A DNA stretch of 32,000 nucleotides from Chlamydiota bacterium. Its GTDB lineage: Bacteria; Auribacterota; JACPWU01. The notes under the pieces were generated by a model. That model saw only the letters and a program-made list of their open reading frames with translations. It did not search any database and had not been told where the DNA came from. The position numbers were made by a program, and so were the translations under genes. The stretch spans positions 63,629-95,628 of the forward strand of contig JACPWU010000002.1 in NCBI GenBank assembly GCA_016196885.1. Direction: 5' to 3'. This document shows positions 5,629-30,572 of this stretch, one piece after another (within the stretch, counting starts at the first letter, position 1; the number at the start of each line of letters is the position of its first letter).

Positions 5629-6563
5629 AAATTGTTTTTATGGGGACGCCGCACGTAGCGGCCCTGGCCTTGGAGGGGGTGGCAAGGCATTTTCCAATCA
5701 CGGGGGTGGTGACTCAACCCGATCGGCCTCGAGGACGTGGGCTTCATGTTTTTCCCTCTCCTGTGAAGGAAATGGCCATTCGTTTGGGTCTTGCGGTTTT
5801 GGAACCCGTGAAAACAAGGGATCCCGTTTTTCTCGCAAATTTAAAAAGTTGGGCCCCTGATTTGATCGTGGTGGTGGCCTATGGTGGACTCTTGCCGCGC
5901 TCGGTTCTTGAAATTCCTTCCCTAGGTTGTGTGAACCTTCATTCTTCGCTTTTACCCAAATACCGCGGAGCGGCCCCGGTTCAATGGGCTTTTTTAAATG
6001 TGGAAAAGGAAACAGGATGGACCACTTTTTATCTTTCAGAGGGGATGGATTCTGGGGACATGATTCTTCAGAAAAAAATGTGGGTGCAACCTGAGGATGA
6101 TGCCGCTTCTTTTTTTGAAAGGATGATTCCGTCAGGAATTGAATTGTTAAAAGAAACGATTCAGCAGGTTTTAAATGGAAGGGCGCCGCGCATCCCCCAA
6201 AATCATAGGGAGGCGACCCTCGCGCCTAAATTAAGCAAGGCCGACGGAAAAATAGATTGGAATCAGTCGGCTGTTTCCCTTTGGAATCGGGTTCGCGGGC
6301 TTCTCCCCTGGCCTGTGGCCTTTACCTCCTTTGAATGGAAAGGGAAGTTGCATGAGTTACGCATTTTTAAGGCATCTGTCGAAACGGGAAAATCACCTGC
6401 GCCGGGTAAGATCTTAGAAATTCGTTTGGATGGATTTTTGGTAGGGACGGGTCGGGATGCTTTATGGATTCAAGAAGTTCAGAAAGAAGGTTCTCGCCGG
6501 ATGAGCGCGGAAGAATTTTTGAGAGGGCATGCGATTGCGGTCGGGACTGTTTTAGGGAAATAA
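5625..6563 (+). CDS. fmt: Methionyl-tRNA formyltransferase
   Basis: MKIVFMGTP start (the ORF track extends to 5598; ATG 5625 overlaps the upstream stop as ATGA). Motifs VVTQPDRPRGRG, NLHSSLLPKYRGAAPVQWA, and a C-terminal Fmt domain. Confidence 0.93.
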   Translation: MKIVFMGTPHVAALALEGVARHFPITGVVTQPDRPRGRGLHVFPSPVKEMAIRLGLAVLEPVKTRDPVFLANLKSWAPDLIVVVAYGGLLPRSVLEIPSLGCVNLHSSLLPKYRGAAPVQWAFLNVEKETGWTTFYLSEGMDSGDMILQKKMWVQPEDDAASFFERMIPSGIELLKETIQQVLNGRAPRIPQNHREATLAPKLSKADGKIDWNQSAVSLWNRVRGLLPWPVAFTSFEWKGKLHELRIFKASVETGKSPAPGKILEIRLDGFLVGTGRDALWIQEVQKEGSRRMSAEEFLRGHAIAVGTVLGK

Positions 6564-6566
6564 AAC

Positions 6567-6674
6567 AAATTTCCAATAACAAATGTCAAATTAATTTCCA
6601 ATTCTCCAATGACCCATTGGGGATTGGAGCATGGGTCATTCATTTGATATTTGTTATTGGAAATTGGTTATTTC
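6567..6674. repeat. Periodic-arm hairpin H2 between fmt and rsmB (weaker 8-nt periodicity)
   Basis: AATTTCCAATAACAAATGTCAAAT (left) pairs with ATTTGATATTTGTTATTGGAAATT (right), and AATGACCCAT pairs with ATGGGTCATT. The left arm carries a 16-nt bulge. Units include ATTCTCCA, ATGACCCA / TTGGGGAT, TGGAGCAT, TTGGAAAT, TGGTTATT. Confidence 0.65.
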
Positions 6675-6675
6675 T

Positions 6676-7216
6676 ATGAGTCCTCGTGACGCTGCCTTTC
6701 ACGCCCTTCAAAATTGGGAAAAGAAATCTTTGCCTATCTCTTACACCCTCGAGCCCTATTTTTTAAAGGCGAGTGAAGAAGATTTTTGAGAACATGAGGC
6801 GGTTGGGAATCAAAATGATTCTACCGATGGTGGCGGATGCGACGAAGATCAAAAATCTTTTTAAAATTCCTTTTGACCGCATTTTGGTAGATGTCCCGTG
6901 TTCTAATTGCGGAGTTTTTGCTAAAAGGGTCGAGGCCCGCTGACGGTTTTCTATGAAAGAAGTCAAGCGCTTGGCTGCGTTACAGATTCAAATTTTAAAA
7001 GAGGCGCTTCGGCTTCTAAAGTCAGGGGGGATTTTGGTGTATTCTACGTGCAGCATTGATCCTATCGAAAATGAGGAAGTGGTTCGAGCTTCCTTGAAAG
7101 ACCAAGCTCAATTCCAGCTCACCGATGAAAAAACAATATTTCAAACTCTTCAGCAGGCGGGGGGCTATTGGGCAAAGATAAGACTTTCCCTTGACAAGGG
7201 CGCTTTCCTAATTTAG
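6676..7216 (+). pseudogene. rsmB: 16S rRNA m5C967 methyltransferase RsmB, inactivated (large internal deletion, frameshift, in-frame TGA)
   Basis: The conserved def-fmt-rsmB order is kept. 6676-6786 encodes 37 aa (MSPRDAAFHALQNWEKK..) and then a stop. A +1 frame from about 6767 reads ..ENMRRLGIK..FDRILVDVPCSNCGVFAKRVEAR*RFSMKEVKRLAALQIQIL..GGILVYSTCSI.P.ENE, which aligns with the E. coli RsmB C-terminus (FDRILLDAPCSATGV..PDIKWLRR..LQSEIL..GGTLVYATCS). The TGA at 6941-6943 replaces the conserved Trp. The NusB-like domain and the SAM-binding AAPGGKT region are missing. Confidence 0.85.
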
Positions 7217-7233
7217 ATTGAGTCTCAATTAAA
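7191..7233 (+). promoter_or_regulatory. Sigma70-like promoter with an overlapping palindrome upstream of the FTR1 operon
   Basis: TTGACA (7191-7196), a 17-nt spacer, then TAGATT (7214-7219). The palindrome ATTGAG-T-CTCAAT (7217-7229), within TTAGATTGAGTCTCAATTAAA, overlaps the -10. SD AGGAG at 7237-7241, ATG at 7248. Confidence 0.45.
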
Positions 7234-7247
7234 CCCAGGAGTGTCAG

Positions 7248-8654
7248 ATGTTTGAATCGTTCATTATTACCTTGAGAGAAGGGATTGAGGCCTCCCTGGT
7301 GATCGGCATCCTTTTGGGGATTTTGAAAAAAATCTCGAGGGAGGACCTCGTTCGCTTCGTTTACGGGGGTGTGGGGGCCGCGGTCGTGGCCAGTGGCCTG
7401 GGGGCTCTTTTCCTCCAATCCTTTGTCATCAATGAAGAGGTGTATGAAGGGACCCTTTACCTTGTCGCCGCTTTTTTTGTGATCACCATGCTTTGTTGGA
7501 TGCGCCGGCATGCCAGAACATTAAAGGGAGAAATTGAAACGGCTGTTCATCACATGACAGGTGGAGCCCAGAAAAAAGGAGAGGCCTGGGGAATTTTTGC
7601 CTTCACCTTTTTCATGGTTTTTCGGGAAGGGGTTGAGACGGTTCTTTTTTTAAGTGCCGTGGGTCTTACCACGCAAAAGCTTTTGTCTTTTATCGCAGGA
7701 CTGTTGGGTCTGGTGCTGGCCGTTCTTTTCTGCGTGGCTTTTGTGAAGGGGACCCTGCGGATTGATTTGGGGAGATTTTTCCGGGTGAGCACCGCCGTTT
7801 TATGGATTTTTGTTTTTCAATTGTGGGTCAATGGTTTTCACGAATTGTCCGAAGCTCAAATTTTACCTGCCAGTCAAAGGGAGATGGCCCTTGTAGGACC
7901 TTTGGTTAGAAACAATGCCTTTTTTATTTTGGCCATTCTGGCGATTCCCATTTTTATTTTTTTATTCTCTGCTCGGAAAAGGGAAAATTTACCCGATGAA
8001 ATGTCAGGCCCTGAACGCAGACTGGCGTTGTCCAAGGCGAAAAGTGAAAGGCGCTGGCGTTTCAGTTGGTCGGCTGTCTCTTTTTTGATTCTTCTGTCTT
8101 TGGGGGCGCATACCGTTTATTCCAATCGGTCTGAAAAAATAGACCCTCCCCTTCTCGTAGAAAGCCAAGGCGGCTCGATTAAAATTCCTCTTTCTGAAGT
8201 AAATGATGGAAGGCTTCATCGGTTTGGCTTGAATGTTGGGGAAGGCATGGTTCGTTTTCTTGTCATTAAAACCAGCGATGATCGTTATCGAACAGCCTTT
8301 GATCTTTGCGAAATCTGTGGAGATTATGGCTATCGCCAAGAAGGTGAGAATATTATTTGTCTCAATTGTACGGCGGCCATCCATCCTCCGACAATGGGTG
8401 TGGCAGGGGGATGCAATCCCATTCCTTTACAATCGTGGGTCGAGGGAGGGGAGCTTTTGGTTAAAGAGACAGATTTAAAAGTGTTTCAAGATCATTTCAA
8501 AATGAAGGTGCTACCGGAAGTGACGTGCACCCTTTGTCACATGAAATTACATTTTGAAGAGGCAAAAGAAATAAAGGCGAAGGGAAAAACTTTTTATCTT
8601 TGTCCGATGGAATCTTGCCAAAAAGAATTTGAGAAACGGTATTTGAATTATTAA
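7248..8654 (+). CDS. FTR1-family metal permease fused to a DUF2318/COG4393-like Cys-rich domain and a C-terminal YHS/TRASH-like segment
   Basis: Two REXXE motifs (TLREGIEA, VFREGVET) in a multi-TM N-terminal half. About 8139-8480 reads AFDLCEICGDYGYRQEGENIICLNC..GGCNPIPL. About 8517-8651 reads TCTLCHMKL..GKTFYLCPMESCQKEFEK. Confidence 0.85.
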   Translation: MFESFIITLREGIEASLVIGILLGILKKISREDLVRFVYGGVGAAVVASGLGALFLQSFVINEEVYEGTLYLVAAFFVITMLCWMRRHARTLKGEIETAVHHMTGGAQKKGEAWGIFAFTFFMVFREGVETVLFLSAVGLTTQKLLSFIAGLLGLVLAVLFCVAFVKGTLRIDLGRFFRVSTAVLWIFVFQLWVNGFHELSEAQILPASQREMALVGPLVRNNAFFILAILAIPIFIFLFSARKRENLPDEMSGPERRLALSKAKSERRWRFSWSAVSFLILLSLGAHTVYSNRSEKIDPPLLVESQGGSIKIPLSEVNDGRLHRFGLNVGEGMVRFLVIKTSDDRYRTAFDLCEICGDYGYRQEGENIICLNCTAAIHPPTMGVAGGCNPIPLQSWVEGGELLVKETDLKVFQDHFKMKVLPEVTCTLCHMKLHFEEAKEIKAKGKTFYLCPMESCQKEFEKRYLNY

Positions 8655-8693
8655 AAACTAATTTGGACGAAATTATTTTTAGAGACTTTTCCT

Positions 8694-9956
8694 ATGCTCT
8701 TACGAATCCTCAGTGAATCTTTCATGCGTCGCAAGCGGCGCAAAATACTGGGTGTTTTTGCCGTTTCCCTGGGCGCCAGCCTGGCGACGGCGGTGATTGG
8801 GATTTCCTTGGAAGTGGGAGATAAGGTGAGTCGTGAATTGAATGTTTATGGCTCGAATATCGTGGTTCATCCTTCGGATATTGTAGATGAAGAAGAGGGC
8901 CCCGTTCTGGGACAGCCCAGGCTCGACGAATCGGACCTTCCCAAAATGAAAACGATTTTCTGGGGCAATAACATCATGGATTTTGCCCCTTTTCTTTTGA
9001 GCGAGGTTACCCTCAAGGGCGAGACAATTTCTATTGAAGGAACATGGTTCTCTAAAGAAATGAGTGTCCCAGATGGCCCATCCGTTAGAACGGGAGTCGA
9101 AACCCTTTTCCCTACCTGGCATGTGGAAGGGTCTTGGCCTCGAGATGATCAGGCCTTGAGAGAGGTGCTCGTAGGAAAAGAGATCGCGGCCCAGTTTAAT
9201 ATTCATCCTTCTCAAAAAATCACGATTGAGAAAAACGGAAAACCACTTGAGGTTTTAGCAACAGGAATTTTAAATTCGGGAGAGCAATACGATTCGAAAA
9301 TTTTGGTGGATTTAGATTTGGCCCAAGGGCTCACTGGACTTCCTAAGGGAGTGGACCAAGTTTTCGTTCGAGCGCTCACCATTCCAGAAGATGATTTTCT
9401 GAAGCTTTACGCGCGTCATCCGCAGTCTCTTTCTCCTCAAGAGTATGAACGGTGGTCATGTTCCCCTTATGTCAGTACCGTTGCGGCTCAGCTTCAGGAG
9501 GCGATTGCGCATGCGGTTGCAGAGCCCATTCTTGAAGTTTCTCAAAGAGAAGGGGTTTTGCTTAAAAAGCTCAAAGGACTTTTTATTTTTATTTGTGCAG
9601 TTGCTTTATTAGCCGCTGGAGTTGCTTTAACCACTGTTTTAATGGCCACGGTGGTAGAAAGGCGTCAGGAGGTCGGGCTTTTAAGGGCTTTAGGCGCAGG
9701 CTCCAAAGATGTGGTTTTAATTTTTCTATCTGAATTGGCTGTCATGGCCATCCTCGGATCTTTTTTGGGGGGGGCCTTAGGCTATGGATTGGGACAATGG
9801 ATATCCTTTCATTTGTTTCACTCTTTTATTCAACCTAATCCGATGGTTCTCTTTATTGTTGCGGGAGTGACATTGACCATCTCTCTTATGGGAGGCCTTT
9901 TCCCTATACGATTTGCCCTCAAAGTAGACCCTGTGAGAGTCTTGCATGAAATTTAA
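8694..9956 (+). CDS. ABC transporter permease, FtsX/MacB-type with a large periplasmic domain
   Basis: 420 aa. N-terminal TM (RKILGVFAVSLGASLATAVIGISL), a soluble domain of about 250 aa, then a 3-TM FtsX-type C-terminus containing ERRQEVGLLRALGAG. Confidence 0.85.
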   Translation: MLLRILSESFMRRKRRKILGVFAVSLGASLATAVIGISLEVGDKVSRELNVYGSNIVVHPSDIVDEEEGPVLGQPRLDESDLPKMKTIFWGNNIMDFAPFLLSEVTLKGETISIEGTWFSKEMSVPDGPSVRTGVETLFPTWHVEGSWPRDDQALREVLVGKEIAAQFNIHPSQKITIEKNGKPLEVLATGILNSGEQYDSKILVDLDLAQGLTGLPKGVDQVFVRALTIPEDDFLKLYARHPQSLSPQEYERWSCSPYVSTVAAQLQEAIAHAVAEPILEVSQREGVLLKKLKGLFIFICAVALLAAGVALTTVLMATVVERRQEVGLLRALGAGSKDVVLIFLSELAVMAILGSFLGGALGYGLGQWISFHLFHSFIQPNPMVLFIVAGVTLTISLMGGLFPIRFALKVDPVRVLHEI

Positions 9957-11061
9957 AATGTTTTTAAAACTTTGTTTTGCTTCGATTTCTCATCAAAAGG
10001 GTAAATCAGCTTTGATGATGATTGTTTCTGTTATGGCCGTTGCGGTGACCACCAGTCTCTTGGGATTGATTTATGATGTTCGGCTTCAAATGCAAAAGGA
10101 ACTCATGGCCTTTGGCCCTAATTTTAAAGTCCAACCTCAATGGAATACCATTGGCAACATGATTTCGTGGGCCCAGTACGACGAAATTGAAAAAATGTTT
10201 TTCAGGCCAGATGCAATTATTTGCCCTGTTTTAGCGGGTGTGGTGTTGTGGAAAGATCGCTCTCAATTAATAGAAGGCGTTTTATTAGATGCTTACCAAA
10301 AGATTTCCAAGCATTGGATAGTGGAAGGTACATGGCCAAATAAGCCAGGAGAAGTTTTAGTGGGAGAAAAAGTCGCTCAGAAATTTCATTTAAAGTTGGG
10401 AGAGACTTTGACTTTTGATCAGTCCTCTCAAGCTTTTTTGATTCGAGGTTTTTTTCGATCAGGGACCCGAGAAGAAGAAAAAATAGTTTTCTCAATGAAA
10501 GGCGCGCAAAAAATTTTAAAAGAGGAAAAAAACTTTTCATTTGTTTTTGCCAGATTAAACAATTCTCTTCAGGAATTAGAAAATTTAAGCGAAAATATTG
10601 AAAAACATTTTCCTGATTTAAAGGCGGTTCCTATTCGAAGGGTTTCTTTGGCGGAGGGAGCGATTCTAGATCGTATTGGCAGTTTAGTGGGATGGGTGAA
10701 TATCCTGATTTTGATGGTTGCTGCGTTGGCTTTGATGGCGACTTCAACAGTTTTGGTGGATGAGCGCCGTGAAGAGTTTGGCTTGCAGCGGGCCTTGGGA
10801 GCAAGTCCCGCTCAATTGATGCGGCTTTTTTACATGGAAACTTTTTTGAGTGCCTTCATCGTTTCACCCCTTGGTTTTTTACTAGGATTCTGGGGGCTAA
10901 AAATATTGGCTTATGAGGTTTTTTCGGCTCAAGCGACTTTTCGGTGGGAAATGGTTCCTGTGATTTTGATTGTTTTAATGGTTGTCATTCTTCTAGGAGA
11001 GAGTGTGGCTGTGAGAAGAATTGCGACCCTTGAGCCGGCGATGGTTTTAAAAGGGGAGTAA
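9946..11061 (+). CDS. ABC transporter permease, FtsX/MacB-type (second copy)
   Basis: 371 aa with the same architecture and ERREEFGLQRALGAS. It overlaps the previous gene by 11 nt (alternative ATG at 9958). Confidence 0.85.
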   Translation: MKFKMFLKLCFASISHQKGKSALMMIVSVMAVAVTTSLLGLIYDVRLQMQKELMAFGPNFKVQPQWNTIGNMISWAQYDEIEKMFFRPDAIICPVLAGVVLWKDRSQLIEGVLLDAYQKISKHWIVEGTWPNKPGEVLVGEKVAQKFHLKLGETLTFDQSSQAFLIRGFFRSGTREEEKIVFSMKGAQKILKEEKNFSFVFARLNNSLQELENLSENIEKHFPDLKAVPIRRVSLAEGAILDRIGSLVGWVNILILMVAALALMATSTVLVDERREEFGLQRALGASPAQLMRLFYMETFLSAFIVSPLGFLLGFWGLKILAYEVFSAQATFRWEMVPVILIVLMVVILLGESVAVRRIATLEPAMVLKGE

Positions 11062-11068
11062 ATGAGTA

Positions 11069-11103
11069 AAGGACGATGGACGATGGAAGATGGACGAAGA
11101 TGA
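11069..11103 (+). repeat. Five tandem purine-rich heptamers between the permease and ATPase genes
   Basis: AAGGACG ATGGACG ATGGAAG ATGGACG AAGATGA. They carry four ATGs in three frames. A 13-codon mini-ORF (11062-11103, MSKGRWTMEDGRR) ends in an ATGA overlap with ATG 11100. Confidence 0.7.
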
Positions 11104-12173
11104 GCAGCCTTATTCAAGCAAAAAATTTAACGCGTCGTTATAGTGACCATGTCATGGCCCTCGATCATGTAGATTTAACAGTTGAACGAGGTGAATGGCT
11201 TGCCATGATGGGGCCTTCTGGGTCTGGGAAGACGACCTTGCTGAATTTATTGGGTTGTTTGGATCGTCCCACGGAGGGAGAAATTTTCTTTGAAAATCGT
11301 TTGATCAGTACTTTCAGTGCTCAAGAGTTGAATCGCTTTCGCCGCGAAAATGTAGGGATCGTTTTTCAGCAATTTCATTTGATTGGTTATTTGACGGCCC
11401 TGGAAAATGTAATGTTGGCTCAGTATTATCACAGCATGGTCGATCGTGAGGAGGCAAAGCGTGCCCTAGAGGATGTCGGATTGGGTGAGCGGATTCATCA
11501 TTATCCGTCACAACTTTCGGGAGGGGAGCAACAGCGGGTTTGCGTGGCCCGGGCCTTGATTAATCAGCCTAAATTGATTTTGGCAGATGAACCTACAGGA
11601 AATTTGGACGAGAAAAGCGAAGAGACGGTGCTGGATCTTTTTCGGCGTTTGCACGCAAAGGGACACACTATTTTAATGGTCACGCATGACGTGACCGTTG
11701 GAAAAATGGCGGATCGTCAACTGCAATTGGAACACGGAAGAATAGCAGGATCTTATTTAAGTCCCCTTCAAGCAGAGGAGGATATTGAGAATTTTCTCAA
11801 GCGCTTATGGGAATTACGTGAAGAGGGTAAGCTTTCGTATGACTATTTGCAGAAAAATAATTTTTTGGATCATGCGGGTGTTTTGAAATACATGCAGGCC
11901 AAAGAACTTTTGGAAGTGAAAGATCGAAAAATCTATTTTACTTCAGCAGGTGAGCTTCGTATGAGAGATATCATTCGTCGCCACCGGCTGGCCGAAATAC
12001 TTTTTTCTAAAGCTTTACACATGGATAAAGAAGAGTCGGCTGTTGAGGCCTGTCAATTTGAGCACATGCTCAATCCCGATATCACAGAAAGAATCTGTAC
12101 TTTTTTTCATCATCCAAAGAAATGTCCTCATGGGAAGGAAATTCCTGGAGGGAAATGCTGTGAAAGACCGTAG
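11100..12173 (+). CDS. ABC transporter ATP-binding protein (MacB/LolD-like) fused C-terminally to a DtxR/MntR-family metal-sensor module
   Basis: MSSLIQAKNLTRRY.. is a typical N-terminus (the ORF track start at 11076 is an in-frame alternative). Walker A GPSGSGKTT, signature LSGGEQQR, Walker B LILADEPT, H-loop VTHD. From about 11775: EDIENFLKRLWELREEG..RRHRLAEILF..EACQFEHML.P.I.ERI..F...P.KCPHGKEIP, the DtxR-family pattern. Confidence 0.85.
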   Translation: MSSLIQAKNLTRRYSDHVMALDHVDLTVERGEWLAMMGPSGSGKTTLLNLLGCLDRPTEGEIFFENRLISTFSAQELNRFRRENVGIVFQQFHLIGYLTALENVMLAQYYHSMVDREEAKRALEDVGLGERIHHYPSQLSGGEQQRVCVARALINQPKLILADEPTGNLDEKSEETVLDLFRRLHAKGHTILMVTHDVTVGKMADRQLQLEHGRIAGSYLSPLQAEEDIENFLKRLWELREEGKLSYDYLQKNNFLDHAGVLKYMQAKELLEVKDRKIYFTSAGELRMRDIIRRHRLAEILFSKALHMDKEESAVEACQFEHMLNPDITERICTFFHHPKKCPHGKEIPGGKCCERP

Positions 12174-12254
12174 CTCGTCTTTCGTCGTTCGTCTTCCGTT
12201 TATAAGCAAGAAGTTAGTAACGGACGACGAACAACTAACGAAGAACGACGAACA
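12174..12254. repeat. Periodic-arm hairpin H3 (7-nt units) directly after the ATPase stop
   Basis: Left arm CTCGTCT TTCGTCG TTCGTCT TCCGTTT (12174-12201). Right arm ACGGACG ACGAACA ACTAACG AAGAACG ACGAACA (12220-12254). The arms are complementary with mismatches. Confidence 0.75.
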
Positions 12255-12283
12255 AAAATTGTTCAAAAGAAAAACAGGTTGTT

Positions 12284-13561
12284 ATGAACCCCTATCATGG
12301 CTTATGGCTTAAGGCTCAAGAATTAATGCCCGGCGGTGTCAACAGTCCCGTACGGGCTTTTAAGTCTGTGGGGCTTGATCCGCTGATTGTTTCCAAAGCC
12401 AAGGGTTCCAAAATTTATGATGTTCGAGGCAAGGCCTATTTGGATTTGGTCATGTCCTGGGGACCTTTGATTTTAGGGCATGCGCATCCTGAGATTTTGA
12501 AAGCAGTAAAAGAGGCTTTGGAGGAGGGGTCTAGCTTTGGTGCCTTGTCTCATCGCGAAATTCTCTTGGCTGAGGCGATTTGTAACGCGCTGCCTTCCCT
12601 TGAAAAAATCCGTTTTGTCAGTTCGGGAACAGAAGCGGCCATGACAGCCATTCGTTTGGCGCGGGCTTTTACTGGAAGGGATAAAATGATCAAGTTCGAA
12701 GGTTGCTATCACGGCCATTCCGATTTTCTTTTGGCCAAGGCGGGCTCTGGCCTTGCGACTTACAGTCTCGCAGGAAGCGCGGGGATTCCTAAAGAGGTTT
12801 TGAAATCTACGCTTGTTCTGCCATTCAATGATTGGGTGGCTCTTGAAAAAACAATGAATCGCTTCGGTCGTGAAATCGCCTGTATTTTGGTAGAACCCAT
12901 TCCCGCCAACATGGGCTTGGTGTTTCCCGAAAAGGATATGCTTAAGACCTTAAGAAAAATGTGTACGCAAAAAGGAATCCTTTTAATCTTTGACGAAGTG
13001 ATCACAGGTTTTCGAGTCGGATACGGAGGCGCACAAGAGCTTTATCACGTTCAACCTGATTTAACTATTTTAGGGAAAATCATTGGCGGCGGATTTCCCG
13101 TGGGTGCTGTCGGTGGGCGTAAAGAAATCATGGATCAATTGGCACCTTTGGGACCCGTGTATCAAGCAGGAACCCTTTCTGGAAATCCGGTGGCCATGGC
13201 TGCGGGATTAAAAACTTTGGAAATTCTGAAGAGAAAAGGCGCTTATGAAAAACTTGAAAAGCTGGGCGCAACTCTTGCTGGTGGTCTCGAAGAAATATTA
13301 AAGAAGAAAAAAATTTCCTTTCAGCTCCATCGCATCGGCTCCATGATGACTCTCTTTTTTAATGATCGGCCGATTGAGAATTATCAGGATGTATTACAAT
13401 GTAATACAGAAAAATTTAATCAATTCTTTAGAGAGATGTTTCGAAAAAGAATTTTCCTTCCTCCCTCTGCCTTTGAAACCTGGTTTTTGAGCTTGAGCCA
13501 CTCTGCTCAAGACATCGAGAGCTTCTTAAAGGCAGCTGACCAGACGTTCAAGGCTTATTAA
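12284..13561 (+). CDS. hemL: Glutamate-1-semialdehyde 2,1-aminomutase
   Basis: 425 aa. PGGVNSPVRAF, SWGPLILGH, FDEVITGFR and LGKIIGGGFPVGA (PLP lysine) are typical of HemL. Confidence 0.95.
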   Translation: MNPYHGLWLKAQELMPGGVNSPVRAFKSVGLDPLIVSKAKGSKIYDVRGKAYLDLVMSWGPLILGHAHPEILKAVKEALEEGSSFGALSHREILLAEAICNALPSLEKIRFVSSGTEAAMTAIRLARAFTGRDKMIKFEGCYHGHSDFLLAKAGSGLATYSLAGSAGIPKEVLKSTLVLPFNDWVALEKTMNRFGREIACILVEPIPANMGLVFPEKDMLKTLRKMCTQKGILLIFDEVITGFRVGYGGAQELYHVQPDLTILGKIIGGGFPVGAVGGRKEIMDQLAPLGPVYQAGTLSGNPVAMAAGLKTLEILKRKGAYEKLEKLGATLAGGLEEILKKKKISFQLHRIGSMMTLFFNDRPIENYQDVLQCNTEKFNQFFREMFRKRIFLPPSAFETWFLSLSHSAQDIESFLKAADQTFKAY

Positions 13562-25023: not shown

Positions 25024-25419
25024 ATGAAAGCACTGATGATGGCCTTTTTTTATTTCATGGCTTCCATGACTTGTTCTTGGAGCCTGATGCAGGAATGTTG
25101 TTCCGGGAAAGTCCATCCTCGGGTTTGCGTTGAAAATCATCACTCCCATCGTGCTGATAAAGAAAACTCAAAACATCATAGACATTCACAAACCAACAAG
25201 ACTTGCTGTAGTCAACTGATAACCCCCCTTGTCGATTCTTTCAGACTCTTGCAGAAAAGTTTTTTGACGGATTTTCAAGTGTGGATCAGAAATTTTCATC
25301 AGGGTTGTTTTGAATGGCAAAAATATTTTTCGATTTTTTATCGAGGGCCTCCATTTTCTATTCGTGGAAGGCCTCTTTATATCGTTCTTTTCTTTATCCA
25401 TGCACCTCCCCATCCCTAG
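25024..25419 (+). CDS. Small exported Cys/His-rich protein, paralog of 18196..18591
   Basis: 131 aa. N-terminal hydrophobic segment; CC-x8-C-x25-CC with ENHHSHRADKENSKHHRH; C-terminal GPPFSIRGRPLYIVLFFIHAPP. It has the same length and motif order as the protein at 18196. Confidence 0.55.
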   Translation: MKALMMAFFYFMASMTCSWSLMQECCSGKVHPRVCVENHHSHRADKENSKHHRHSQTNKTCCSQLITPLVDSFRLLQKSFLTDFQVWIRNFHQGCFEWQKYFSIFYRGPPFSIRGRPLYIVLFFIHAPPHP

Positions 25420-25788: not shown

Positions 25789-25902
25789 GAAGCAAGAGAA
25801 TCGTCTGTGTAAAAATATGATTTTGCTGAAAACTTATTGAGGCTGTCATCACATTCGCTTCGCTATTTTCAAAGGTCTCAATATCTAACAAAGGAGAGAA
25901 AG

Positions 25903-26271
25903 ATGAAAAAGATCGTGTTTGCAGTTCTTATGTCAGTGATAGGTTTATCAGCTTTTGCCCATGAAGAAGGTGAGGCGAAGGACGATAGCATTAAGGGTGA
26001 AGTGATGGATTTGGCGTGTTACGCGAGTCATCCGGATACAGGCAAAGGCGAAAGTCATGCAAAATGTGCCATGCAATGTATGGAAAAGGGTTTGCCTGTA
26101 GGAGTTCTAACCTCAGATGGAGTTCTTTACATCGCTTTAGGCTCTGAGCATGTCTCTGCCAATAAGAAACTGGTCCCTTATGCCGGAAAAATTGTCACCG
26201 TCGAAGGGCATGTTTATGAGATGAATAACGTCAAGTTCATTGAAGTCGAGGAAGTTGAAGCAGGAGCGTAA
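25903..26271 (+). CDS. Secreted small Cys-containing protein of unknown function
   Basis: Start moved to MKKIVFAVLMSVIGLSAFA (AAGGAGAG SD). The mature part reads HEEGEAKD..DLACYASHPDTGKGESHAKCAMQCMEKGLPVGVL..., followed by a likely beta-rich C-terminus. Confidence 0.65.
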   Translation: MKKIVFAVLMSVIGLSAFAHEEGEAKDDSIKGEVMDLACYASHPDTGKGESHAKCAMQCMEKGLPVGVLTSDGVLYIALGSEHVSANKKLVPYAGKIVTVEGHVYEMNNVKFIEVEEVEAGA

Positions 26272-30113: not shown

Positions 30114-30572
30114 ATGAAAAGGATAACTGCGTTCATTCTACTTTTAGCTTTCAATCCTTCTTTTCTCCAGGCCGAAACGGGTGCGAGCCTAGAGCTTTAC
30201 AATCTTTCCCTGATGGATGAAAAGGGTCAGGAGGTGAGTGAGGGAACCGTACAGCCAGGCGCCCAATTGACGCTGGAGATGAAATACGGCCGCCGGGGCT
30301 TTCCCACAAATTCTCTCACCACGCTCGAGGTAGAGCTCTATGATCCAACAGGTGAAATTTTACTTCAGGACAGCGTCGAGCGCCCCTTTACCGAAGGGGA
30401 TCGGTTGGATCGCTATCGCGTAAATATTCCAGCAAATGCCGCTGGAAAATTTTTGCTTGCCCTGACCATTCGCGTGTCTGAAGGGGAGGCGGATACTGAA
30501 AGTGCTGCACAGGTTCTCGCCGAGGTTTCAAAAACCATTCCCTTTGATGTCGAGAAAGAAAATGCTTCATGA
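30114..30572 (+). CDS. Secreted protein of unknown function
   Basis: 152 aa with a signal peptide ending LQA and beta-strand-like alternation (TLEMKY, TLEVELY, FLLALTIRV). Its stop overlaps the next start (ATGA). Confidence 0.6.
   Translation: MKRITAFILLLAFNPSFLQAETGASLELYNLSLMDEKGQEVSEGTVQPGAQLTLEMKYGRRGFPTNSLTTLEVELYDPTGEILLQDSVERPFTEGDRLDRYRVNIPANAAGKFLLALTIRVSEGEADTESAAQVLAEVSKTIPFDVEKENAS

Follow-up and report, generated by a model that had tools for sequence, protein, structure and literature searches.

FtsX/MacB-type (type VII) ATP-binding cassette (ABC) systems use cytoplasmic ATP hydrolysis to drive work on the periplasmic side. An ATPase of this kind, FetD (Cj1663/CJJ81176_1654), belongs to the FetMP-FetABCDEF (Ftr1-P19) iron uptake system of Campylobacter, Yersinia, and E. 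coli, which also comprises an FTR1 permease, a DUF2318 protein, and two FtsX-type permeases. The Campylobacter system has been described as a broadly conserved system for the uptake of iron in which the role of the ABC part "remains unclear" (PMC6083913, PMC10783030), and fetA, fetB, fetC, and fetD were each required for low-iron growth of C. jejuni (PMC10783030). Canonical FetD is a protein of about 240 amino acids (aa) without a tail. We analysed a stretch of 32,000 nucleotides (nt; hereafter, the window) from a Chlamydiota bacterium (assembly GCA_016196885.1, contig JACPWU010000002.1, positions 63,629 to 95,628 of the forward strand), in which a gene for a FetD-type ATPase runs on into a module resembling the metal-dependent repressors of the DtxR family.

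The regulatory domains of the transporters MetNI and ModBC have ACT or TOBE-like folds. C-terminal regulatory domains attached to the nucleotide-binding domain (NBD) give trans-inhibition in type I importers (review PMC4245157). DtxR domains fused to transporters have also been described: YtgR of Chlamydia trachomatis is the C-terminal DtxR domain made together with an ABC permease (YtgC), is cleaved, and represses its own operon, and fusions of this kind were reported in 11 phyla (PMC5599777). Each part is known by itself, namely FetD, the DtxR fold, NBD-borne regulatory domains, and the joining of DtxR to a transporter, and their combination is undescribed in the literature that we searched, in which no description of an ABC-ATPase-DtxR fusion was found. 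The papers on Campylobacter fetMP-fetABCDEF report a plain FetD ATPase and do not mention a DtxR domain (PMC6083913, PMC10783030). This agrees with the initial annotation of the window, made from its letters alone, which did not recognise the arrangement as a described one for Fet/FTR1-type uptake. The fused proteins are currently annotated only as "ATP-binding cassette domain-containing protein".

The fusion and its Fet-type cassette

The fused gene consists of the following parts, where NBD residues and tail residues are numbered from the first in-frame ATG.

Positions 11076 to 12173, + strand: the whole fused gene, a FetD-type ABC ATPase followed by a DtxR-like module (single open reading frame (ORF), 365 aa).
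Positions 11100 to 11750, + strand: type VII ABC NBD (residues 9-225), in which the Walker A, Q-loop, LSGGE signature, Walker B (D171-E172), and H204 switch are all intact.
Positions 11751 to 11774, + strand: short variable linker, residues 226-233 (variable alignment columns 224-233), with a predicted local distance difference test score (pLDDT) of 67-74 in the full-length model and no stop codon.
Positions 11775 to 11942, + strand: equivalent of DtxR domain 1, residues 234-289, with an acidic helix 1 containing N239 (equivalent of M10), followed by a helix 2-turn-helix 3 of reduced length and by a beta wing.
Positions 11943 to 12104, + strand: equivalent of DtxR domain 2, residues 290-343, the metal-binding and dimerisation helices with RRHRLAE (H303, E307) and AC..EH (C326, E329, H330).
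Positions 12096 to 12161, + strand: Cys/His-rich signature C341-x4-H346-P-x2-C350-P-H352-G-x2-I-P-x-G-x-C361-C362, with pLDDT 97-98 across most of it.

The initial annotation had described an ATPase domain ending in LQLEHGRIAG that continues without a stop into about 130 further residues. The sequence bore out both statements, the tail lying in frame at positions 11775 to 12173 (residues 234-365). Of the two in-frame ATGs at 11076 and 11100, the second is likely the true start, most homologues beginning at its position. The start region (11070-11102) contains a short GATGGA-type repeat, GACGATGGACGATGGAAGATGGACGAAGATG, and initiation at 11076 would add eight residues (MDDGRWTK).

The NBD matched Pfam ABC_tran with E 4.6e-35 and the NCBIfam models of LolD, FtsE, and MacB with E 1e-61 to 1e-64. 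A full-length AlphaFold model had a mean pLDDT of 85.8 and a predicted template modelling score (pTM) of 0.63. When its NBD was compared with the PDB by Foldseek, target-normalised template modelling (TM) scores of about 0.85-0.92 were obtained with the NBDs of a pneumococcal non-canonical ABC transporter, MacB, LolD, YbbA, FtsE, HrtA, and BceA, the best PDB folds including 5xu1, MacB, LolD, YbbA, and FtsE. Walker A, Q98, S148-G-G-E, D171-E172, and H204 were invariant in an alignment of the 120 best database homologues (50-100% identity). These sequence and model matches assign the ATPase to the type VII (MacB/LolD/FtsE-like) mechanotransducing class.

All 120 homologues combined ABC_tran with Fe_dep_repr_C in about 353-387 aa, apart from one 320-aa fragment, and those of 353-365 aa covered 96-98% of the query. 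The named sources included metagenome-assembled genomes (MAGs) of Chlamydiae, Acidobacteria, Planctomycetes, and Latescibacteria, a Chlamydiae MAG being the closest named relative. Judging from these sequences, the fusion is widespread in several bacterial phyla and not peculiar to one genome, and the union of an ABC ATPase and a DtxR-like module in one polypeptide, proposed for the window, holds for the whole family. It had been considered that an ordinary ATPase and an ordinary dtxR gene might have been joined by a lost stop or a frameshift in the course of assembly or annotation. Such an artefact would be in line with the neighbouring rsmB gene, which is broken over different frames in the window, and with the mis-splitting of the fused family by gene callers, for example in locus L090; however, the 120 top homologues, from independent assemblies and phyla, share the same continuous architecture and length, nine loci have the fusion within the same cassette, the reading frame is kept at the junction, where a short linker lies, and a split version was not found. 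A frameshift or missed stop was ruled out on these grounds, and we regard an artefact of any such kind as extremely improbable. The broken rsmB makes nearby sequence quality or gene decay an issue, whereas the fusion itself is secured by its relatives. On this comparative evidence, the fusion is real and under selection.

The L090 locus illustrates the mis-calling. A GTG-start ORF at 6341-7414 encodes a 357-aa NBD-DtxR fusion there, of which a public gene call lists no more than the final 137 aa (P0146), and the apparent 657-nt gap before P0146 is the NBD of that ORF. P0146, a candidate for a free two-domain tail in a split cassette, was accordingly rejected as a gene-calling artefact. A second candidate, P0152, lies on a 1.1-kb contig and gave no evidence for a split. 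Because of the L090 mis-call, short free forms of the fused family in databases are to be distrusted, and such short "free" two-domain members may often be mis-calls of this kind. A 428-aa protein (P0178) that joins transketolase pyrimidine-binding and C-terminal domains to Fe_dep_repr_C and FeoA was also set aside, most likely being a chimeric call across adjacent genes.

Upstream of the fused gene, the window encodes three further uptake proteins.

Positions 7248 to 8654, + strand: iron permease of the FTR1 family, fused to a Cys-rich domain of the FetA-type DUF2318/FtrD-like kind and having a weak zinc-ribbon/TRASH-like C-terminal end.
Positions 8694 to 9956, + strand: FtsX-type permease (FetB-like; FtsX E 3.3e-17), kept in 8/8 loci.
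Positions 9946 to 11061, + strand: FtsX-type permease with a MacB periplasmic core domain (FetC-like; FtsX 1.3e-17, MacB_PCD 2.8e-10), kept in 8/8 loci.

The first product matched FTR1 (E 6.6e-33), FtrD-like (E 3.3e-28), and the EfeU model (2.8e-41), and its translation contains the permease motifs REGIE and REGVE together with an exact copy of the DUF2318 motif CxxC-x13-CxxC-x14-C described in PMC6083913. The order FTR1-DUF2318/FtrD-like permease, two FtsX permeases, and fused ATPase was found in nine loci (the window, L001, L003-L008, and L090), that is, in every readable locus, and the fused gene was always the last of the four. A scan of a genome collection matched generic Walker-A/Q-loop patterns, so that 78 of its 80 loci were unrelated ABC ATPases; the informative loci were the fusions L007 and L008 and the tail-less L009-L011. 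The closest tail-less NBD relatives, in L009-L011, were 53-60% identical to the fused ATPase. One of them, a 239-aa FetD of Brenneria roseae (L011; NBD 53% identical), lies in the cluster FetM(FTR1)-FetP(P19)-FetA(DUF2318+YHS)-FetB-FetC-FetD-thioredoxin. From this synteny and sequence similarity, the fused gene is assigned as the orthologue of FetD within a compact cassette of four genes for ferrous-iron uptake. The cassette and the canonical system have in common the kind of ATPase, FTR1, DUF2318, and the two FtsX partners. They differ in that FetM and the FetA domain are separate proteins in canonical Fet but one protein here, that the cassette has neither P19/FetP nor the thioredoxins, and that FetD carries the tail.

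The DtxR-like tail and its free relatives

Residues 289-357 matched Pfam Fe_dep_repr_C (PF02742) with E 3e-22 and 78.8 bits against a cutoff of 27, and PF02742 was matched by all 71 family members scanned. Tail positions 6-125 aligned to positions 10-134 of the NCBIfam DtxR equivalog (E 1.3e-18), and a phmmer comparison with the PDB returned IdeR, DtxR, SloR, and ScaR with E 7e-12 to 1e-7, tail positions 5-125 corresponding to DtxR 9-134. An AlphaFold model of the tail alone (pLDDT 91.7, pTM 0.85) had the topology H1-H2-H3-beta wing-H4-H5-H6. In Foldseek it superposed on two-domain IdeR, DtxR, and the Deinococcus Mn repressor DR2539 with TM 0.78-0.83 and a root mean square deviation of 2.2-2.8 Å over about 128 columns. 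The initial annotation had aligned the tail with DtxR/IdeR/MntR over its whole length, which these profile, sequence, and fold matches support, and had called the module complete, which holds for the fold of domains 1 and 2 only. Asn239 stands at the M10 position, the third domain of DtxR (SH3/FeoA) is lacking, and the helix-turn-helix (HTH) is five residues shorter than in DtxR. The search with the two DtxR profiles, which had been proposed as a check, was likewise divided: the C-terminal profile matched strongly, whereas the winged-helix profile PF01325 gave nothing at E<=1 for the query. Compared with DtxR, IdeR, MntR, and ScaR/SloR, the tail is thus homologous over domains 1 and 2 but is not a free protein and lacks the SH3/FeoA domain.

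The equivalents of the DtxR ligands H79, E83, C102, E105, and H106 are H303, E307, C326, E329, and H330, and each was invariant or nearly so among the homologues. The H98 equivalent is Ala322 (E, S, or D elsewhere in the family), and the M10 position is occupied by E, D, or N across the family. The primary site consequently retains three of its four side-chain ligands (C326, E329, and H330), and the ancillary site retains H303 and E307, having lost H98 and, with the SH3 domain, two further ligands. The alignments confirmed the earlier reading of these ligands, in which H98 was not conserved, and its extra terminal CC pair is C361-C362; the ligands proved conserved in orthologues as well. Conservation within the tail is highest at the residues of the metal sites. 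The invariant or nearly invariant residues of the tail comprise W245 and E249; R301-R302-H303-R304-L305-x-E307-x-L309-F310; A325-C326-x2-E329-H330; and, further on, C341, H346-P347, C350-P351-H352, I356-P357, G359, and C361-C362.

Helix 1 is more variable at the positions equivalent to MntR D8 and E11, the latter of which we take to be position 242. Position 239 was Glu or Asp in 85 and position 242 Glu in 84 of the 120 fused proteins. In the free, feoB-linked cousins of the tail described below, these positions were Glu/Asp and Glu, respectively, in 117-119 of 120 proteins, and both were Glu in 117.

The six Cys/His residues of the C-terminal signature were invariant in 120/120 fused proteins and present in 117-120 of 120 free relatives. 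The C-terminal motif was found in 129/150 representatives, 110/120 free relatives, and 115/120 fusions. At the positions of C341, H346, C350, and H352, IdeR has Val, Asn, Ser, and Phe. SloR and ScaR share only CPHG with the tail, in which C341, H346, and C361-C362 are extra. The full signature was found in no solved DtxR-family structure, and GxCC aligned to nothing. The conservation pattern suggests that it is probably an additional, perhaps structural, metal site of a wider DtxR subfamily.

In contrast to the metal-site helices, the HTH and wing were poorly conserved, with a mean top-residue frequency of 0.33, whereas the NBD reached 0.73 and domain 2 (helices 4-6) 0.69. This region retains only a hydrophobic pattern, and its "recognition helix" has no conserved residue. 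In IdeR and DtxR that helix begins with a P-[ST]-V-[ST] motif, which was absent from all 240 proteins compared (120 fused and 120 free). PF01325 occurred in none of the 120 precomputed annotations of the fused proteins, nor did it appear among the families that 13 or more of the 71 members matched at E<=1. The net charge of the HTH, which was considered as a test of DNA binding, was -0.6 for the fused family, -1 for DNA-bound IdeR, and -3.7 for the feoB-linked cousins; it does not discriminate for the fused family, and only the cousins are clearly acidic.

In an exhaustive HMMER search with the tail over 1.84 billion cluster representatives, E<=1e-3 was reached by 1720 proteins and E<=1e-10 by 334. 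The best matches were mostly non-fused proteins of about 215-240 aa that matched from their N-terminus. In all twenty relatives scanned, Fe_dep_repr_C was found, in most cases with FeoA after it or ABC_tran before it, and PF01325 was found in none. The free relatives form a family of more than 3000 proteins, automatically annotated as "metal-dependent transcriptional regulator", in which an atypical acidic HTH is followed by Fe_dep_repr_C and FeoA. They share the whole Cys/His signature, including C341, H346, and the CC pair. Precomputed PF01325 was missing in 119 of the best 120 free relatives listed, and the conservation of the HTH was 0.37 versus 0.73.

The genes for these free relatives lay directly after feoB in 4/5 contexts, or in 3/4 when the syntenic pair L092/L093 is counted once; in one case fur lies upstream, and the gene and feoB overlap over 4 nt. 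The feoB-linked genes were located within 5001-6100 in L092, 5001-6064 in L093, and 6001-6666 in L087 and L088, and no separate feoA gene was seen in the feoB-linked contexts examined. In L092 and L093, feoB is followed by a 59-aa Cys-rich ORF, then by the atypical DtxR-like-FeoA gene, and then by a gene for a canonical 142-aa DtxR (PF01325+PF02742). The canonical paralogue of L092 has a normal HTH, five residues longer ("KIAPPSAVEMLKKMEKLG"), and also carries the Cys-rich C-terminal signature, which therefore belongs to a wider DtxR subfamily. The presence of atypical and canonical DtxR-type genes side by side in one operon is most simply explained by different functions. These comparisons suggest that the shortened, fast-evolving HTH marks forms tied to the NTPase partners of ferrous-iron importers, namely FetD in Fet and FeoA/FeoB in Feo.

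FeoC is a winged-helix protein that binds the G-domain of FeoB rather than DNA, and in some species it has a Cys-bound Fe-S cluster. FeoA acts on the NTPase domain of FeoB (PMC8980893). A FeoA domain is present in the closest free relatives of the tail, whose genes directly follow feoB, whereas the tail itself lacks FeoA; with FeoC it has no sequence relationship, and its partner NTPase is an ABC ATPase instead of a G-domain. By their domain content and position, the feoB-linked proteins may be sensor-equipped FeoA proteins rather than regulators, in which case their current label would be wrong.

The 59-aa ORF (L092 4832-5011, L093 4796-4975; MKCPLCGYEF...CRACP...CSLKCCPRCGY...) has nine Cys and overlaps both of its neighbours. 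It had no Pfam match, and its composition and position suggest that it could be a zinc-ribbon or Fe-S accessory of Feo in a FeoC-like niche.

Sensing and repression as possible functions of the tail

Two elements upstream of the cassette bear on its control.

Positions 7191 to 7219, + strand: sigma-70-like cassette promoter (TTGACA, 17-nt spacer, TAGATT), the best promoter-like site in 6500-12700, with 10/12 matches.
Positions 7206 to 7240, no strand: inverted repeat over the -10 element and the transcription start (35 nt, 17-nt arms, 71% complementary), with the core palindrome ATTGAGTCTCAAT at 7217-7229.

A 15-mer of this region, AGATTGAGTCTCAAT, recurred at non-syntenic places between fur and hemP in the two closest relatives, L001 and L006, and L001 has a copy with one mismatch between a TTGACA/TATAAT promoter and the ATG of fur. 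No match to it was found in the 87 other loci. The boxes of L001 and L006 agreed with the E. coli Fur-box consensus at 14/19 positions, a score reached by 24 and 14 of 1000 shuffles, respectively. Fur-like boxes also precede the cassette in L004 (2/1000 shuffles) and L008 (8/1000), giving significant Fur-box similarity in four lineages, and fur adjoins the cassette in 3/7 relatives (L001, L003, and L006). Matches to a DtxR-box consensus were at chance level in the nine cassette upstream regions by the same shuffle test. Being identical to the boxes in L001 and L006, the palindrome at 7206-7240 is a probable iron-box operator, predicted most likely for Fur. This suggests that Fur, rather than the tail, regulates transcription of the cassette; both proteins are encoded in those loci. 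An operator common to distant loci was looked for and rejected, the palindromes differing between phyla and being shared only by the window, L001, and L006. Matches to the B. subtilis MntR-box consensus upstream of the cassettes had been counted without a shuffle comparison and were set aside.

The initial annotation had offered two models, a cytoplasmic metal sensor that shuts the pump by trans-inhibition and a transporter-tethered module that still binds DNA. The evidence leans to the sensor, because the winged helix is the least conserved part of the tail and lacks the hallmarks of a recognition helix, the nearest free relatives share an operon with a canonical DtxR, and the promoter palindrome looks like the Fur box of the lineage. 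We tentatively favour the reading that the tail is a putative cis-acting metal sensor that feeds back on the ATPase from the cytoplasm. MetNI and ModBC (and also MalK) offer a likeness in that a ligand-binding, dimerising domain on the C-terminus of the NBD senses the transported species. They are type I importers, whereas here the ABC system is type VII, the domain is derived from DtxR, and the ion enters through a separate FTR1.

In such a mechanism, the tail would sense cytoplasmic Fe2+ in cis, and two tails beneath the NBD pair would dimerise through domain 2 in the manner of DtxR. The metal would bind between helix 1 (positions 239 and 242) and helices 4 and 5 (H303, C326, E329, and H330) and would cause a rigid-body movement of domain 1 of the DtxR "caliper" type. 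Between the NBD and helix 1, the bearer of a metal-ligand position, there is nothing but the short linker; through its approximately eight residues, the movement would pull the NBDs instead of positioning recognition helices on DNA. ATP turnover, and hence iron uptake, would fall when cytoplasmic iron is sufficient, and transcription of the cassette would separately, and probably, be under Fur through the promoter palindrome. The work of FetBC-FetD would support the entry of iron through the FTR1 channel, for which the evidence is genetic and concerns Campylobacter FetBCD. Since a type VII ABC system acts on the periplasmic side, the sensor would throttle the service of FetBC to FTR1 rather than close the channel. 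The dimerisation of the tail, the identity of the metal, the direction of the effect on the ATPase, and the loss of DNA binding are points that we infer.

Several observations weigh against this reading. The window protein and its four closest relatives (P0002-P0005) have Asn239 and Lys242 (nt 11790-11792 and 11799-11801) in place of the acidic helix-1 ligands, which weakens the caliper step for the window protein; by its residues, this Asn/Lys subclade may bind one metal ion fewer or have an altered selectivity. The full-length model has no confident interface between NBD and tail, as seen from its pTM of 0.63 and the low pLDDT of the linker. The winged-helix fold is fully retained at high confidence in the tail model and its Foldseek matches, and the HTH of the fused family appears no more acidic than that of IdeR, so that DNA binding would be compatible with its charge. 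The similarity of the window's own palindrome copy to the E. coli Fur consensus does not exceed chance, and adjacency to feoB would also be expected of an ordinary local repressor. By analogy, Chlamydia YtgC-YtgR indicates that a transporter-fused DtxR domain can be a true repressor, and the closest named relative of the fusion is from a Chlamydiae MAG.

A repressor like that of YtgC-YtgR, tethered or cleavable, would bind the 7206-7240 palindrome in its iron-replete state, either released from the ATPase or attached to the membrane. It would make use of a winged-helix and dimerisation fold that is complete and superposes on DNA-bound IdeR, of conserved metal ligands, and of a palindrome placed exactly over the -10 and +1 of the operon, and the helix 3 of the window protein is not acidic; in relatives the same box precedes operons with the fused gene. 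The published YtgR (PMC5599777) is a direct precedent of a C-terminal DtxR domain cleaved from an ABC permease to repress its own operon. As described there, YtgC-YtgR (CT069) and the fusion share a C-terminal DtxR-family module on an ABC metal-uptake subunit, a place at the end of the operon that may be regulated, and the broad lineage. YtgR, however, is fused to a membrane permease of a type II-like (ABC-3) importer and is a cleaved, demonstrated repressor, whereas the tail here is joined to the soluble ATPase of a type VII system, is known from sequence and model, and has an HTH without the canonical hallmarks. That HTH is the fastest-evolving part of the tail, five residues shorter, without a recognition motif, and unmatched by PF01325 in the family; the linker is short and unconserved, with no conserved internal start seen at the junction; the palindrome resembles a Fur box and precedes fur itself, DtxR-box similarity being at chance level; and a canonical DtxR is encoded in the same operon as the closest free relatives. 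On balance, we consider a repressor of this kind, the main rival of the sensor, unlikely.

The tail might also sense nothing and serve, without regulating the ATPase, as a dimerisation clamp with a structural Zn or as an Fe2+ acceptor or partner docking site. The six invariant Cys/His residues within the last 22 residues, which resemble a structural metal site and occur in the canonical DtxR paralogue as well, would fit this role, as would domain 2, which is the dimerisation domain in DtxR according to its Pfam description, and the replacement of two sensing ligands by Asn and Lys in the window subclade. An analogy is offered by FeoC, described above as a winged-helix partner of the FeoB G-domain. 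Nevertheless, the invariance of C326, E329, H330, H303, and E307 is hard to explain without reversible metal binding, and tail-less FetD works in canonical Fet clusters, which implies that no clamp is intrinsically needed. We judge such a non-sensing module quite improbable.

The cis-acting sensor may be one case of a broader development, in which a clade of DtxR-derived modules gave up DNA binding and became transporter-attached sensors of iron (or of an Fe-S or redox state) that gate the unrelated ferrous-iron importers Fet and Feo post-translationally. Fet would be gated through the fusion to the FetD ATPase, and Feo through the fusion to FeoA next to feoB. The clade would be marked by the shortened, fast-evolving winged helix together with the invariant C-x4-HP-x2-CPHG-x2-IPxGxCC end, of which the Cys signature is also carried by the canonical L092 DtxR. 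This extension is conceivable and agrees with all of the evidence, and we put it forward as a conjecture.

If the tail is a sensor, it would be the first regulatory domain of the trans-inhibition type described on a type VII mechanotransducing ABC ATPase, and its caliper would be the first of a metalloregulator to act on an NTPase instead of DNA, a new output for a classic fold. An ATPase equipped with an iron-sensor domain would make ATPase activity a control point for iron entry, and the fused FetD offers a rare handle on the role of FetBCD in FTR1/P19-type uptake. Regulation of the NTPase by the module would add a fast post-translational layer of iron homeostasis beside Fur in Acidobacteria, Planctomycetes, environmental Chlamydiae, and others. 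Were the tail instead a released repressor, the YtgCR principle would extend from permeases to ATPases and across ABC classes.

DNA flanking the cassette

The rsmB gene upstream of the cassette (6631-7216) is fragmented. Its pieces matched positions 47-101 and 108-168 of Methyltr_RsmB-F in different frames, the N-terminal part is missing, and the cassette promoter lies within the last fragment; the gene is either a decaying pseudogene or the product of assembly frameshift errors. Since L001 and L006 have fur-hemP-DUF6662 at the place of rsmB, the upstream junction of the cassette has been rearranged. In these close relatives, hemP and a DUF6662 gene precede the cassette (L006 1784-4050, L001 2944-3979). 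L006 also has an unannotated 298-aa gene and genes for an FMN_bind protein and an Aq_1264_TM protein before the cassette, which are missing from the window. From their position and domains, it is possible that the extra upstream genes of L001 and L006 are added uptake components, for example reductive ones.

Elsewhere in the window, four ORFs of 131-152 aa (18196-18591, 25024-25419, 25837-26271, and 30114-30572) had no Pfam match at E<=1e-3. A structured element was found at the end of the operon.

Positions 12175 to 12248, + strand: long stem-loop directly after the stop of the fused gene, at the operon end (minimum free energy -32.4 kcal/mol, z -3.3 versus shuffles).

It is composed of CGTCGTTCGTC/GACGACGAAC-type repeats followed by a tract that is A-rich, not T-rich, and terminator-like matches were obtained at 12157-12185. 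By its predicted structure, the stem-loop may be an operon-end terminator or an RNA-stability element.

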